NCBI GenBank assembly: GCA_016839745.1
Contig: JAEOTS010000028.1
Coordinates: 1 to 61,687 of the forward strand
Length of the DNA stretch: 61,687 nt
Direction: 5' to 3'
Origin: Promethearchaeota archaeon
Lineage (GTDB): Archaea; Asgardarchaeota; Lokiarchaeia; Sigyniarchaeales; SOKP01
A program made the translations under genes and the position numbers. The first letter of the stretch is position 1. Each line of letters starts with the position of its first letter. Under the pieces are notes generated by a model that made no database searches, was not told the DNA's origin, and saw only the letters and a program-made list of their open reading frames with translations. Of this stretch, positions 4,029 to 55,504 are shown piece after piece.

Positions 4029-7000
4029 TTATTTTGATTTTTTATAAAATCTATTATATTTTTTGATAAAGAGTATTATAAAAGCTGCAATTATACCAAT
4101 CATCACTAGTAGATTGAAACTTGGTATTCCAGGAGGGGGTGGAACTGAGGGGGCACTATCTTCGACTGTAATTTTTATTGTAGCAGAGCAGTAATTACCA
4201 TAGGGATCGTATGCTCGTAATTCTATCCAGTATTCACCTACTGATAATGGAACCACATTGATGATCAGGCCAGTGTTATCAATCTGAAAATTAGTCGTGT
4301 CATTTACCCAGAAATTGTCAATTAACGACAAATCTTCCGCGCCCACACCGTAAGCAAACTGGTCGCCATACTCTACAACTTGATCAGTTGGCGTTGAATA
4401 CCAAGTTGGAGGCGTTGTATCCTCAACCGTAGCTTTTATTGTGTAAGTACAGTAGTTATTATAAGGGTCGTAAGCTCTCACTTCTATCCCGTATTCACCT
4501 ACTGACAATGTAACTACGCTGTAAATATTGCCATTGCTTTCAATCTGAAAATTCGTCGTGTCATTTATCCAATAGTGGTCTATTCCCGAAAGATCTGACG
4601 CATCCACACCGCAAGCAACCGGGTCGCCACACTCTACTACCTGATCAGTTGGCGTAGAATCCCAGGTTGGATCTGTAGTATCCTCATTTACGATTTTGAT
4701 TGTAGCAGAGCAGTAGAAACTTCCTGGATTGTATGCTCGTATCTCTATCCAGTATTCACCTACTGACAACGAAACCACATTGGTGATCAAGCCATTACTA
4801 TCAATCTGAAAATTCGTTGTGTCATTTATCCAATAGTGGTCAATTCCAGAAGGATCCGATGCATTTACATCGTACGAGAACGGATCACCATACTCTATAA
4901 CATGATCAGTTGGTGCGAAATCCCAAGTTGGTGCAGTAGTATCCTCAACCGTGATTTTGATTGTAGCAGAGCAATAAAAATTTCCTGGATCGTATGCGCG
5001 TATCTCTATCCAGTATTCGCCTACTGACAACGAAACCGCATTGGTGATCAGACCATTACTATCAACTTGAAAGTTTGTCGTATCGTTTACCCAATAGTGG
5101 TCAATTCCAGAAAGATCTGAAGCATCCACATCGTACGAAAAGGGATCGCCGAGTTCTAAGACCTGATCGGTCGGTGTGGAATCCCAAGTTGGCGTCGTAG
5201 TGTCCTCAACCGTGACTTTGATTGTAGCAGAGCAATATAAACTTCCTGGATCGTATGCGCGGATTTCTATCCAATATTCACCTACTGACAGCGAAATTGC
5301 GTTAGTAATCAAGCCATTGCTATCGATCTGAAAATTAATCGTATCGTCCACCCAATAATGATCAATACCAGAAAGATCTGACGCGTCTACATCGTACGAA
5401 AACGGATCACCATACTCTACAACCTGATCAGTCGGTGTAGAATCCCAAGTTGGCGTCGTAGTGTCCTCAACCGTGACTTTGATTATAGCAGAGCAATACA
5501 AACTTCCTGGATCGTATGCGCGTATTTCTATCCAATATTCACCTATTGACAGCGAAATTGCGTTAGTAATCAAGCCATTACTATCGATCTGGAAATTTGT
5601 CGTGTCGTTTACCCAATAGTGATCAATTCCCGAAGAATCTGACGCGTCTACATCGTACGAAAACGGATCTCCAAACTCTACAACCTGATCGGTTGGTGTT
5701 GAATCCCAAGTAGGGGGATCTGAACCAATGGTTGTAAAAGACCAGGTGGGAGATATTGTATTCATCCAAGTGTCGTCGGCAATTGCGTACCAAGAATATA
5801 ATGTGCCCCCAAGTAAACCAGACCAAGTAATTGAAGCTGTTCCGCCACTGGAAACTCCTAAATCTGTTCCAATTAAATGATTATTTGAGGTATCATAAAA
5901 AGAAACATCCATTGGATCTCCGTCAACATCAACAACATCCACACTAAGCGTTGGATCTGGACTCACATTAGTATCGTCATTTACGGGATTAGGATTACTT
6001 GGGGCGTTTGGGGCGTTCCAAGTTCCAGATTGTCCTGGATTTAGAGAACCAATTGATCCAGAGGCACTAATAGCCCAATCTGAAGCTCTATCAGTATCGT
6101 AATCGTTAATCCTATAAGCGTAATCACTAGTCGTTAGTAATGGGGCATCTTGTATCCATCCAACGCTATATGGAGGTGTTAATACAAAATCACTTGTTTG
6201 AAACCAGTCTTGATTTGTTGTTTCCTTATTATATAATCCGACAGCAAATCTGAAATTTCCGAAATTTAAGTTTCCTCCTGTATATAAAGCAGTATCAGAA
6301 TTAGTACCAGTACTTTCATAAATTGTCGCTACATAGTTACTTCGAAATATCCAACCAAGAGGAAAGTAATATGTGCTATACAAATTTTCACCCGCATAAC
6401 ATTCGACATACCATCCAGTCATATCTCGATCTGGTCCAAAATTATATAACTCAATAGCATCAGGAGCGCCTGAATTGATTTCATTAATTATTATAGGAGA
6501 TCTTGAATATTCGCTATCAGCTCTAGTTGTAAAATCCCATACTGGAGATTGGAGGGTGTAAATTCCATCAGTAACATTAGCGTACCAGGTATAAGTTGTA
6601 TCCCTTGATAAACCAGACCAAAAAATGGATGAAGTTCTTCGGTTAGAAACATTATTAACAGTACCTATTAAACTGTCATCAAGAGCATTATAGAACGAAA
6701 CATTCATGATATCTCCATTAGGATCGAAAGCATCAACACTCAACTGCGCATTTGTACTTATTCCAGTAGATTCATCTGATGGTTTTGGATTGTATGGTTC
6801 AGATGGTGCATCAGATTCTATTAACGAAAGGTGTGGATCTCCAAAAATATGGAATAGTTCAAAGGTATTTTTAGTTTTTGCGGGATATAGTATAGATCCC
6901 CATGGGTAGACAGTGCCTTCAGAACCTACACCTCCCGTGAGAACATACTTATCAAACATAAACATTTTGCCGAAATTTAGAACAGTACCTAATTCGGAAG

Positions 7001-29672: not shown

Positions 29673-29729
29673 TTTTTTTTTTATTTATTATAGAAGAATA
29701 TCCATTATAATCCATTAGAGGTGAGATGA

Positions 29730-30086
29730 GTCAAAAAACTAAAATTTAAAATATCAATTCCAATAAAAAGTTTGCAAAGCGGAAAGGACTACGAACTTGA
29801 GATTAAGGACGATGCAAATTTTATTGAAGCATTAGCCTTAGTTGATAAAATAGAGAGAGAAAGTTCAGAGAACAAAATTTTTCCTCTCTATGACGGGTAT
29901 ATCCACAATTATTTACAATTATTCGTAAATTTGGAAGACGAGACAATTTATGATGATGTTGGTTTATCCCCTTACGCTCCCGATGAACATGGTCTTTATA
30001 GAAAGTTCAATCCTATAAGAGAGGATATTAAATTCAATTTATTTCCTGACACGATTATTGAATTACAACAAGATGTTGGATGTTGA
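29730..30086 (+). CDS. MoaD/ThiS/ubiquitin-like protein ending Gly-Cys-UGA (possible Sec read-through to 30206)
   Basis: Frame open from 29730; beta-grasp-like pattern (YELEIK..NFIEAL..LQLFVN..TIIELQQDVGC); start codon unresolved. Confidence 0.6.
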   Translation, partial: VKKLKFKISIPIKSLQSGKDYELEIKDDANFIEALALVDKIERESSENKIFPLYDGYIHNYLQLFVNLEDETIYDDVGLSPYAPDEHGLYRKFNPIREDIKFNLFPDTIIELQQDVGC

Positions 30087-30190
30087 TGAGAAAAAGTGAA
30101 AAATAGATTGGATATAGGAACTTTTAAAAGGACGCTTATGGAGAAATACGGAAAAGAGAACGAAATATTTACTCACTATTTTAAATTAAA

Positions 30191-30275
30191 AAGGAATAAA
30201 TCTTAAAAAAGAATGAGATCTTCCAGAAAATGATAGTGGAAGATTAACAATAGGATAGTGTCCTTTATATTCCTT
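30191..30275 (+). promoter_or_regulatory. SECIS-like structured element
   Basis: ATGA-GATCTTCCA-GAAAATGATAG-TGGAAGATT-AACAA, side hairpin AGGAT/GTCCT, outer stem AAGGAATA/TATTCCTT; same layout as the element at 40674-40739. Confidence 0.5.
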
Positions 30276-30369
30276 AATATTTTGAAGATTTTGAAATTAA
30301 TAAATTCTTTTAACTAAATGAAAGAGAGAGAGGAACTTATGGAGAGATATAATACTCTCTAAGACTAAT

Positions 30370-39829: not shown

Positions 39830-40642
39830 ATGAGTGAAGATATAAAAATTATTTCCATAATAGGTGTTGGTTATTTAGGTAAACAAATAGCGGAGAAAAC
39901 GGTATTAAAAGAATATACAATCCGTCTATATGATAAAAATGTAGGAGATTTAGAAATATTCTCCAGCAATTTGAAGGGTAAAGAAGAAACTCTAGGAAAA
40001 GTAACGTCACATGAAACAATTGAAGACGCTGTAAAAGACGCAGACTTAATTATCGAAGCAATTCCAGAAATATTAGAATTGAAGCGAGAGATCTTTAAGA
40101 TAATTGATAAAACAGCTCAACCAAAAGCCATTATTGCTACTAATAGTTCATCAATCCCGGTCTCTAAGTTAGAGGATGATGTAGAGCGAAAAGATAAATT
40201 GTTAAACATCCATTTTTACGACCTTTTTGCTATGCCAATGGCAGATATCATGAGAGGAACAAAAACTAGTGATGAAACTTTTGAAAAAGGCAAAAAATGG
40301 GTTGAGAGTATTGAAATAACTCCTTTAATTGTCAAAAAGGAGTGCTATGGGTTTGTATTTAATAGGGTATGGCGCGCGATTAAGAAAGAATGTTTGAAAA
40401 TCTGGGCAGGAGGATATGCTGATTTAGAAGAAGTGGATAAAGCGTGGAGAATATTCCAGAATATGGGAACAGCTCCCTTCGAATTTATGGATAAAATCGG
40501 GTTGGATGTGATTTATGACATTGAAATGTCCTACTTTAAAAACAGTGGCTTAGAAGATGACAAACCTCCTCAAGCTTTAAAAGATATAGTTGATAATGGT
40601 AATCTGGGCCAAAAATCAGGGAAAGGATTTTACACCTATTAA
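39830..40642 (+). CDS. 3-hydroxyacyl-CoA dehydrogenase family
   Basis: GVGYLG, EAIPE, ATNSSS, GFVFNR, GQKSGKGFY. Confidence 0.9.
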   Translation: MSEDIKIISIIGVGYLGKQIAEKTVLKEYTIRLYDKNVGDLEIFSSNLKGKEETLGKVTSHETIEDAVKDADLIIEAIPEILELKREIFKIIDKTAQPKAIIATNSSSIPVSKLEDDVERKDKLLNIHFYDLFAMPMADIMRGTKTSDETFEKGKKWVESIEITPLIVKKECYGFVFNRVWRAIKKECLKIWAGGYADLEEVDKAWRIFQNMGTAPFEFMDKIGLDVIYDIEMSYFKNSGLEDDKPPQALKDIVDNGNLGQKSGKGFYTY

Positions 40643-40673
40643 TTAATTCTTATCTTTTTTTAAAAAATAAAAC

Positions 40674-40739
40674 ACCCCAACCTTAGCAAGGTTGTCCTTA
40701 TGTATCAACTATTTTTATACATAAGTCATCCAAAGGGGT
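40674..40739 (-). promoter_or_regulatory. SECIS element (eukaryote-like)
   Basis: ACCCC..ATGA-CTTATGTAT-AAAAATAGTTG-ATACATAAG-GA..GGGGT; AUGA begins 10 nt after the stop of a UGA-containing gene. Confidence 0.82.
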
Positions 40740-41252
40740 TTATAACTTTTCATCGATTATGGAAGTCATCATTTCTATAGAAGGCCTATCGGTCTTATCT
40801 TTACCAATATAAGTCCATACGATTTTTCTATCCTTGTTTATCAGAAACTTACTTGGTACCGCTTGTTTAATGTTCAATGTTCCTCCTCCGCCAGGAGCAA
40901 ACCAGTAAACATCGTAATCTTTTGCAATTTTTGCTCCACGATCAGAGATTATATCGACAGTAAAATTATTTTCTTCCTTAAAGTTCTTTAGGAGTCTTTC
41001 GCTGTCGCTTGCGATCGATATTAACTTAATATTTCTTTTCTCAAATTCATTGATATTTTCCGTTAGTAGATATAAATGTTTCTTGCAGTGACTTCACCAA
41101 TTTCCCCGAAAAAAATCGATTAAAACTCCATTGTACTCTTTAAGTAAGTTATCTAAATTTATTTCCTTTCCGTAGATATCTTTTGTATCAAATGCAGGTG
41201 CTATAGAATTCTCTGGTAAACCGCTAGGCCTTGGCGGTTCTTCATTGTTCAT
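40740..41252 (-). CDS. Peroxiredoxin-like (AhpC/TSA) selenoprotein, 170 aa, Sec53
   Basis: APAF...LIDFFRGNW-UGA-SHC...VPSKFLINKD..IVW; TGA at 41094-41096; absent from the ORF track. Confidence 0.88.
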
Positions 41253-41375
41253 ATATTTAATAAAATAATCATAAATTTAAAGTGAATGGCTAAAAAATAT
41301 TAACATTTCAAGAAAGAACATGCTTTGATGAGATAATACTATTTTAATAAAAAAAGAAAAAGAAAAATTAAGATA

Positions 41376-42332
41376 TTAGATTAAGTGGGTCCATGGGACA
41401 TTAACTGTTATATTCAAATTAATGAGTATTGCAGCGTAAAGCGTAGCAAATGAGATTTTCAGCGCTAAAGTTGCATCTGTAGTAGCTAATCCTACGATAT
41501 AAGTTGGATCCATTACAATCGTTATGTTATTATTGGTATTATTCGTGAAGGAATGAAACGTACTAAAATAGTTATTTAATGATTCTCCTACTTTAACTCC
41601 CTCAGGAAGTTGTGGCGGATTTGAAGAAGTAACTGTATAAAATTCTGCGTCGATTAAAATATCATAAATAGCGTAGAATCCTTGGTTGTTGAGATCAAAA
41701 GTAACGGTAACATTAATAGTATCGTCACTCGGATTCATAAGTGTACCACCGTCATCCCACCCCAAGACAAATGTATCGCGAAATTGAAACCCAAGATTCA
41801 TTCCACTATATACAATGCTGCCAAGATAGCCAAATATAATAAGACTAAATATCGTGCCTACTACTTTAAAGATTGTACTAAGTTTAAATTTTACGCGATA
41901 TTCTTTACTTTTTCGTAATTCTATCGCTTCGATTAAGTATTGCATTGCTCTAACTCCAGATGAGCCTAATAACAACCAAGCAAATATTTGCAAACCTAAA
42001 AGTACCTGAATAGTAGGTAAACTTATTGAATATGTTCCTAGTGATACTCCTGCTGTAAAACCCCCGAAAAGATAGAACATATATATACCGGAGTATATTG
42101 TAGAGCCAAATGCTATAAGGCGATTTGCTGAGGTATCTTTAGGATAAGCATGCCGTGCCATGGCAAAAACGGTACCGATAATTCCAATAATGATTATGGA
42201 TGTTTTGAATTCTTGGGTAAATGTCATTAGTCCCATTATTGAGACTACTTCAAAGAGAATTAACGGTAAAGCAATGTACATTATCGCATTGAGAATCCCA
42301 TGAAAGATCATTTTAGTTATTTGAATAGCCAT
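41376..42332 (-). CDS. Hypothetical membrane protein with extracellular C-terminal domain
   Basis: Five TM segments then a beta-rich domain with several N-x-S/T sequons. Confidence 0.75.
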   Translation of the reverse strand: MAIQITKMIFHGILNAIMYIALPLILFEVVSIMGLMTFTQEFKTSIIIIGIIGTVFAMARHAYPKDTSANRLIAFGSTIYSGIYMFYLFGGFTAGVSLGTYSISLPTIQVLLGLQIFAWLLLGSSGVRAMQYLIEAIELRKSKEYRVKFKLSTIFKVVGTIFSLIIFGYLGSIVYSGMNLGFQFRDTFVLGWDDGGTLMNPSDDTINVTVTFDLNNQGFYAIYDILIDAEFYTVTSSNPPQLPEGVKVGESLNNYFSTFHSFTNNTNNNITIVMDPTYIVGLATTDATLALKISFATLYAAILINLNITVNVPWTHLI

Positions 42333-54797: not shown

Positions 54798-54843
54798 CTT
54801 ACACATAGAAGATTAAAAAATAAAAGGAATAATAAAAAAAATT

Positions 54844-54914
54844 TGTTTGGTGAGATGTGGCTAACCTTCTAAAAGTAAATATCATTTATATTTTCAATTT
54901 ACTTTTTCCAAACA
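54844..54914 (-). promoter_or_regulatory. 3' structured element, non-canonical SECIS candidate
   Basis: Outer stem TGTTTGG/CCAAACA, 10-bp stem AAAAGTAAAT/ATTTACTTTT, loop with GAAAA; lacks an AUGA core. Confidence 0.5.
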
Positions 54915-54923
54915 TATTATTTA

Positions 54924-55391
54924 TTATATTTTTTCTAATATTTCAAATAGAATTTCATTTTTAGGGATGTCTTGCATGCTATCTCCATAATAAGCGAATT
55001 GAATAATACCTTGCTTATCAATGATTAACATTCCAGGCATCCTTCCTCCTTTGGATAACTTTATCTCTTGATTCAACATTTTGGGAACCTTTTTCGAAGG
55101 ATCATAGTATATTGGATATTTTCGGGCGTATTTTTCTTCCAATTTTTTTGCGTTTTTTTCAGAATCTGCTAAGATTGGATAAAGTACGGTTTCCATCTGC
55201 TCAAACTTCTCGAAATCTTTTCTTAAATGTGCCGCGTGCCATCTACAGTAAGGTCAATTAATGTTTCGAAATAATATGACAACAACTTTTTTTTTACCTT
55301 CAAGAGCTCTTATATTTAGTACCCCGCCTCTCGAATCTGGGAGGGAAAATTCTTGAATTTTCGTACCAACGAGTTGAAATTTATCCTTCAT
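54924..55391 (-). CDS. Peroxiredoxin-like (AhpC/TSA) selenoprotein, 155 aa, Sec46
   Basis: FSLPD...VVVILFRNIN-UGA-PYC...PGMLIIDKQGIIQF; TGA at 55254-55256, in frame with the 90-aa ORF in the track. Confidence 0.85.
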
Positions 55392-55504
55392 CTTCTTCAC
55401 TTTTTTGTAGAATTCTATTATAATTTAATCAGAATTGAATAAATAGTTGCTTTTTATAGATTAAAAAAGAATAAATGTAAAAAAAGAAAAATTTTTAGTA
55501 AAGA

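Follow-up and report, generated by a model that had tools for sequence, protein, structure and literature searches.

A conserved extra hairpin in the SECIS element of a Lokiarchaeal peroxiredoxin-like selenoprotein gene

The window analysed here, the whole 61,687 nt of contig JAEOTS010000028.1 from assembly GCA_016839745.1, carries on its minus strand what we take, with a probability of about 0.93, to be a Lokiarchaeal Prx-like (PrxL) selenoprotein gene in which an in-frame UGA would be read as selenocysteine (Sec) through a lokiSECIS, with an extra hairpin as an integral part of that element in a k-junction topology. The extra hairpin is real and conserved, and is general rather than peculiar to this gene.

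Translation table 11 gives only two ORF fragments in the gap where the gene lies, of 52 aa and 45 aa, and automatic gene callers would leave PrxL unannotated, as would be anticipated if the TGA were a real stop in a pseudogene or between two small ORFs and the downstream frame and hairpins were relics or chance. When the TGA is read through, a single frame of 170 codons runs from 41252 to 40743 on the minus strand and is closed by a TAA stop (40742..40740); it contains just one in-frame TGA, at codon 53 (41096..41094), in the context FRGNW-U-SHC. The Pfam AhpC-TSA match to this frame (1.2e-23, aa 17-146) crosses the TGA, as does a Redoxin match (3e-18), which bears out the AhpC/TSA-like frame with UGA at the redox position proposed in the initial annotation and argues against a broken gene.

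Alignment with PDB relatives (Prx-like proteins and ResA) pairs U53 with the N-terminal Cys of the ResA CxxC, whereas C56, the sole Cys among the 170 aa, falls on the peroxidatic Cys of Prx, with U53 standing in place of the Thr of TxxC. As the T/S-x-x-C motif is absent and the Sec sits at the Thr position, identity as a canonical peroxiredoxin (Prx/BCP) was rejected, and the protein is classed as Prx-like, not Prx. The top NCBIfam matches are a SelL-related redox protein and ResA, and the features that define the PrxL family are all found: the AhpC/TSA thioredoxin fold, a U/C-x-x-C box (here U53-S-H-C56), no other Cys, a conserved Sec-UGA and an entry in a published catalogue. The product is thus a Lokiarchaeal Prx-like thiol:disulfide oxidoreductase by prediction.

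The gene directly upstream, on the same strand (41376-42332) and syntenic in 25 orthologous loci, encodes a multi-pass membrane protein of 318 aa with a C-terminal soluble domain; it is unlikely to be a thiol redox partner of PrxL, having neither a Cys nor a Pfam match. The loci of some relatives contain a further SECIS of this type (L026:2744-2832, L028:2733-2821 and L046:2699-2787), which implies a tandem PrxL paralogue with its own SECIS ~730 nt downstream of the first.

Evidence that the TGA is not a stop comes from 46 related loci in Promethearchaeota (Loki) MAGs, 45 of which cover the Sec site. The alignment of homologues at codon 53, which had been suggested as a check, has TGA at this position in all 45. 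In the 26 sequences that align without gaps (the window gene and 25 orthologues) TGA is likewise kept in 26/26, whereas the nearby second Cys codon drifts between TGT (14) and TGC (12). Furthermore, of the nucleotide differences downstream of the TGA in the gap-free set 63% are third-position changes, and the orthologues share more of their amino acids with the window protein downstream of the TGA than upstream, the reverse of the missing downstream conservation that had been put forward as grounds for doubt; the pattern indicates that the region beyond the TGA is under purifying selection. With conservation, a domain match that spans the TGA, a SECIS and the Sec machinery described below all present, a pseudogene or a pair of small ORFs is effectively refuted, and we regard it as very improbable.

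It would seem less probable still that TGA has been reassigned throughout the genome, for example to Trp or Gly, with no recoding specific to Sec. Several genes of the genome do contain an in-frame TGA, as such a reassignment would require, but each takes the place of a redox Cys in a known selenoprotein family and has a SECIS after it, and the genome has a dedicated tRNA-Sec, whose anticodon is UCA. Genome-wide reassignment is refuted by stop-codon usage, since TGA elsewhere serves as an ordinary stop, terminating 217/1862 long ORFs genome-wide and 4/36 on the window contig.

All the components of the Sec machinery that had been listed for checking were found in the genome, namely SelD, SepSecS, PSTK, EFsec and tRNA-Sec. 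SelD is encoded by two tandem genes (C158:16249-18900), each with one in-frame TGA of its own (G-U-N-C-K and G-U-S-C-K). SepSecS, which is cut by a contig end (C150:~5552-6768), reaches 411 bits where the cut-off is 225; on the same contig an EFsec candidate (C150:854-2287, minus strand) has selB as its top match at 228.7 bits, compared with 147 for EF-Tu, and PSTK is the top match of its ORF at 173 bits. The PSTK and EFsec scores lie below the NCBIfam cut-offs, though both are clear top matches.

The tRNA-Sec gene lies between EFsec and SepSecS (C150:~5449-5599, plus strand), and was located only by blastn with the intron-less tRNA-Sec of genomes from the same genus. Its acceptor stem is 9 bp long, the discriminator base is G and the CCA is encoded; two introns interrupt the gene, one of ~26 nt in the anticodon loop and one of ~30 nt in the T loop; a T-loop intron has been reported in the literature for Loki tRNA-Sec. 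Neither ARAGORN nor Rfam RF01852 recovered the gene from the genome, the latter returning a tRNA-Gly only, and Rfam found nothing on C150; a regex scan gave five candidates, all false. An intron-less tRNA-Sec that exceeds the Rfam cut-off is present in only 4/12 genomes of the genus. In intron mode ARAGORN also called a tRNA-Pyl in the genome (anticodon CUA, 5-nt intron), which may be a false call.

Given this gene set, Sec-tRNA(Sec) would be made by the archaeal/eukaryotic route, through SerRS, PSTK and SepSecS with selenophosphate from SelD, and would be delivered by EFsec; the Sec-specific genes of this route found here are PSTK, SepSecS, SelD and EFsec. The ribosome would then read the UGA at codon 53 as Sec through a lokiSECIS ~365 nt downstream of it.

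The gene, its Sec codon and the class of its SECIS are already known for this same assembly, because an identical entry and a description of the lokiSECIS have been published. Lokiarchaeota PrxL selenoproteins, with UxxC and UxxU boxes and no other Cys, were reported together with the lokiSECIS, an element near the stop made up of AUGA, a 9-bp stem, an 11-nt loop and GA, with the first five bases of the loop mostly A and the last G (Mariotti 2016, PMC4989117). Prx-like selenoproteins have since been recorded in 43% of Sec-using Asgard archaea, and the 170-aa sequence of the window is identical to Lokiarchaeia_GCA_016839745_U in the supplementary FASTA of that study, where the Sec position is written as X and the FFRGNW-X-SHC subfamily occurs 47 times (Huang 2024, PMC11227280).

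At the level of the gene, the likeness to Lokiarchaeota PrxL.2 with its lokiSECIS (PMC4989117) and to the catalogue entry (PMC11227280) is complete. The description of the gene as a "hidden" selenoprotein therefore does not hold, as the identical protein stands in the published Asgard selenoproteome catalogue, and both its family and its type of SECIS have been on record since 2016. With family, SECIS type and exact sequence all published, the PrxL gene itself adds nothing new; it does provide a useful positive control, being a recoded gene that is split by gene callers and was recovered from sequence alone.

The SECIS lies in the 3' UTR on the minus strand. Its lower stem, H1, is formed by a 5' arm ACCCC (40735..40739) and a 3' arm GGGGU (40674..40678), both supported by the MFE fold and by alignments. 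A 5' junction strand UUUGG (40730..40734) leads to the core AUGA (40726..40729), which starts 10 nt after the TAA and whose columns are invariant in the alignments; its GA is the 5' half of the tandem G.A pairs. Above the core, helix II and its apical loop occupy 40697..40725, with 9 bp (40725-40717 with 40705-40697, 8/9 pairs covarying in A2, the alignment of PrxL elements described below) and the 11-nt loop AAAAAUAGUUG (40716-40706), in agreement with the published lokiSECIS dimensions; the loop begins with AAAAA and ends in G, as is characteristic of a lokiSECIS. The 3' half of the G.A tandem is the GA at 40696-40695, also invariant, and is followed by a conserved C at position +1 (together 40694..40696). 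The extra hairpin, H3 (AACCUU-GCU-AAGGUU, 40679..40693), lies in the non-bulged strand and abuts the 3' arm of H1.

The AUGA 10 nt after the stop, the 9-bp stem, the AAAAA loop, the complementary stem and the GA were all as first described, and the assignment to the eukaryote-type, Lokiarchaeota-type 3'-UTR SECIS agrees exactly with the dimensions given for lokiSECIS (PMC4989117). The one departure from the usual lokiSECIS is a minor one, the penultimate base of the loop being U where A is usual. The MFE fold of the window element is a three-way junction, with a modest z of -2.0 for this single sequence against shuffles. When checked with covariance models, as had been advised, the element scored 65.6 bits with a model built from its orthologues (E about 1e-12 in the 3.5-Mb genome), whereas the Rfam SECIS families gave no match at E <= 10 in 40300-41400, where only chance snoRNA/sRNA matches were seen; the Rfam SECIS models likewise had no match for the Loki elements of Mariotti 2016 (PMC4989117).

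The initial annotation had remarked on the extra hairpin as unusual. The three-way junction with the ACCCC/GGGGU stem holds, but the hairpin is the norm in this genome and its relatives. In a pattern scan of the genome, 13 elements belonged to the 9-bp class; the loop is 11 nt long in 12 of them and 10 nt long in the other, on C20. They are located after two PrxL genes, four MvhD/FlpD genes (two U each), the C-terminus of HdrA and several small ORFs. In nearly all of these H3 follows 0-4 nt after the GA/AA and H1 encloses both, the spacing between H3 and the 3' arm of H1 usually being 0 nt. The sequences of H3 and H1 are unrelated between genes, H3 stems including ACCAU/AUGGU, AUGG/CCAU, ACUCA/UGAGU, CCCC/GGGG and AGGA/UCCU. 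The same layout is found in the type II elements of the two SelD genes, each of which has an apical ministem, an H3 hairpin and an H1 stem at a zero-nt linker, and in a type II-like element at C116:59232.

Comparison across genomes gives the same picture. A MAFFT alignment of all 57 elements (A1) put H1 and H3 out of register across subfamilies, and because of this loss of register two further alignments (A2 and A3) and constrained folding with shuffled flanks were used. RNAalifold on A2, a plain MAFFT alignment of 17 PrxL elements, returns the same three helices, with pair counts of 90% paired compared with 25-53% in slid registers. In A3, which comprises 63 elements, every pair of H1 (7/7) and of H3 (5/5) shows changes on both sides; A3 is a covariance-model alignment and is biased towards its model, and the sequences are kin, such that the covariation statistics overstate their independence. 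With helix II constrained, the MFE structure is a three-way junction in 45/57 elements, compared with 9.9% of 5700 flank-shuffled controls, the other 12/57 preferring another fold.

H1 and H3 also occur in the MvhD elements of two further GTDB families in the order, those of one family with a GUGA core and a 4-bp helix between core and junction. A PrxL-trained model (R1) has matches in 25/25 genomes of the same GTDB family and almost none elsewhere in the phylum, a restriction that reflects the sequence specificity of the model and not an absence of SECIS elsewhere.

A different role for the extra hairpin has to be weighed, in which the SECIS proper is only the AUGA-stem-loop-GA and the hairpin, together with a U-run, serves to terminate transcription or to stabilise the 3' end, possibly for the convergent gene as well. 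Directly after the element there is indeed a U-rich tract, UUUUAUUUUUU (40662..40672, minus strand), with a similar U-run in orthologues, and it is likely to be an archaeal oligo-U terminator. The gene for a 3-hydroxyacyl-CoA dehydrogenase, convergent with PrxL (39830-40642, plus strand) and syntenic in about 22 orthologous loci, ends only 97 nt away, and published models confine the key regions to the core, the upper stem and the loop.

Such a role sits poorly with the position of H3, which is inside the closing stem H1 and not after it, and with its recurrence 0-4 nt from the GA in the SECIS of unrelated genes, where H3 sequences are unrelated and the neighbours differ; H1 and H3 moreover both covary. 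It is also not needed for termination, since archaeal transcription termination requires oligo-T and not a hairpin. We therefore consider a terminator or stability element unlikely, and favour H3 as part of the SECIS itself.

One more covarying pair was seen near the core. The nucleotide at -2 from AUGA and the one that immediately follows GA, the (-2,+1) pair, form a standard pair in 57/57 elements (G-C in 54, and U-G, C-G and U-A in one each), and other registers do so in only 3-21/57; by inspection the pair is U-A and C-G in the two SelD elements. In the window this pair joins G40731 and C40694, the proposed -1b and -1n positions of a kink-turn. If the (-2,+1) pair is the closing -1b/-1n pair, followed by a 3-nt N-A-U loop and then the tandem G.A, what a canonical k-turn requires would be present, and the lokiSECIS would consist of a kink-turn core, AUGA/GA, with a helix of 9 bp and an A-rich loop of 11 nt above it.

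In a k-junction, as defined in TPP riboswitches (Wang, Daldrop, Huang, Lilley 2014, PMC4005666), the kink-turn forms part of a three-way junction, and the placing of H3 between the GA-C and the 3' arm of H1 agrees with the topology of that definition. As in the TPP riboswitch, the third and lower helices are joined by a zero-nt linker that would permit coaxial stacking. The likeness to the riboswitch (PMC4005666) is one of secondary structure and covariation only, the function is unrelated, and the 5' junction strand is longer here, extending some 3-4 nt past the k-turn loop.

Together, H1, H3 and helix II of the k-turn would thus form a three-way junction, which probably pre-organises or presents the kink. 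The wider proposal, that the lokiSECIS is a k-junction common to the type I and type II elements of every selenoprotein family in at least three GTDB families of the order, and that the junction is functionally required, is one we offer tentatively, with the odds somewhat against it.

Our reading as a k-junction is a modest refinement of what has been published. The text describing the lokiSECIS differs from the present account in that the 3' hairpin, the three-way junction and the covarying (-2,+1) pair are not described there. Neither a three-way junction nor a 3' hairpin is mentioned in the main text of Mariotti 2016, of Huang 2024 or of a 2026 review, and a full-text literature search for SECIS with "three-way junction" returned nothing relevant; the junction may already be drawn, without comment, in the figures of those papers or in the supplement of Mariotti 2016. 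The models of Huang 2024 cover only "core + upper stem + apical loop", and the k-junction paper is cited there only for GA_AA pairs (PMC11227280). What is possibly new is therefore the extra hairpin as a conserved part of such SECIS elements in the Lokiarchaeal lineage.

Elements from other lineages share some of these features. The eukaryotic type I SECIS, an AUGA/AA/GA kink-turn element bound by SBP2, likewise lies in the 3' UTR and acts at a distance on an upstream UGA, and has the AUGA...GA core, a lower helix beneath it and unpaired A's where the apical loop begins. It differs in that helix II is shorter here (9 bp) and a hairpin stands in for the 3' side of the internal loop, which creates the three-way junction; the lack of a match to the Rfam SECIS models, and of any SBP2 homologue reported in Lokiarchaeota (Mariotti 2016, PMC4989117), also set the Loki element apart.

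The SECIS of Methanococcales and Methanopyrus is similar in its 3'-UTR location and in being served by the archaeal PSTK/SepSecS Sec pathway, whilst its GAA_A bulge and GC-rich 3-bp upper stem are absent here, where the core is AUGA/GA. The protein, in turn, belongs to the same AhpC/TSA-fold subclass as the bacterial Prx-like UxxC selenoproteins and eukaryotic SelL (UxxU), in which a redox box replaces TxxC. In the bacterial UxxC genes the SECIS is inside the coding sequence just after the UGA and is read by SelB, unlike the 3'-UTR element described here.

The window and the rest of the genome contain further candidates. A second Prx-like selenoprotein gene in the window (54924-55400, minus strand; FRNIN-U-PYC; AhpC-TSA 1.9e-20) encodes a protein identical to the Huang 2024 entry GCA_016839745_U_2 (PMC11227280). 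Its 3' UTR (54800-54923) holds a 10-bp stem and a GAAAA-containing loop, and its SECIS is considered atypical because it has no AUGA core and was matched neither by the pattern scan for the 9-bp class nor by R1.

Elsewhere in the window (29721-30277, plus strand) an ORF without a Pfam match reads ...QQDVGC-UGA-UGA, beyond which the frame continues for another 38 codons before a TAA at 30206; six nt after this stop there is a full lokiSECIS (30213-30247; 32.7 bits with R1) with AUGA, 9 bp, the 11-nt loop GAAAAUGAUAG, AA, H3 and an 8-bp H1. Two readings of this ORF are considered, a new selenoprotein with a C-U-U motif and a MoaD-like protein whose last residues are GC; the seven families that Huang 2024 lists (PMC11227280) do not include it. 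Finally, lokiSECIS elements follow three small Pfam-less ORFs with an in-frame or terminal TGA (C37:245-478; C116:14506-14761, minus strand; C46:57070-57267, minus strand). Their products, a 63-aa TM protein with GGG-U-PKPC, a 58-aa zinc-ribbon-like protein with three U and a 40-aa CxxC...CxxC peptide that ends at TGA, belong to none of the Asgard families published so far and are candidates for small selenoproteins.

In the literature the Loki SECIS is regarded as the evolutionary bridge to the eukaryotic SECIS. Mariotti 2016 found no SBP2 in Lokiarchaeota, and no paper naming an Asgard SECIS reader was found in the later literature. A k-junction could either stabilise the kinked state without protein or form the docking surface of such a reader. 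If the junction is required, searches of Asgard genomes for selenoproteins should use a model that has H1, H3 and the -1b/-1n pair built in, and the picture of a "shorter eukaryotic SECIS" would need changing; the junction would also offer a concrete target that can be mutated in reporter assays and used in fishing for the binding partner.
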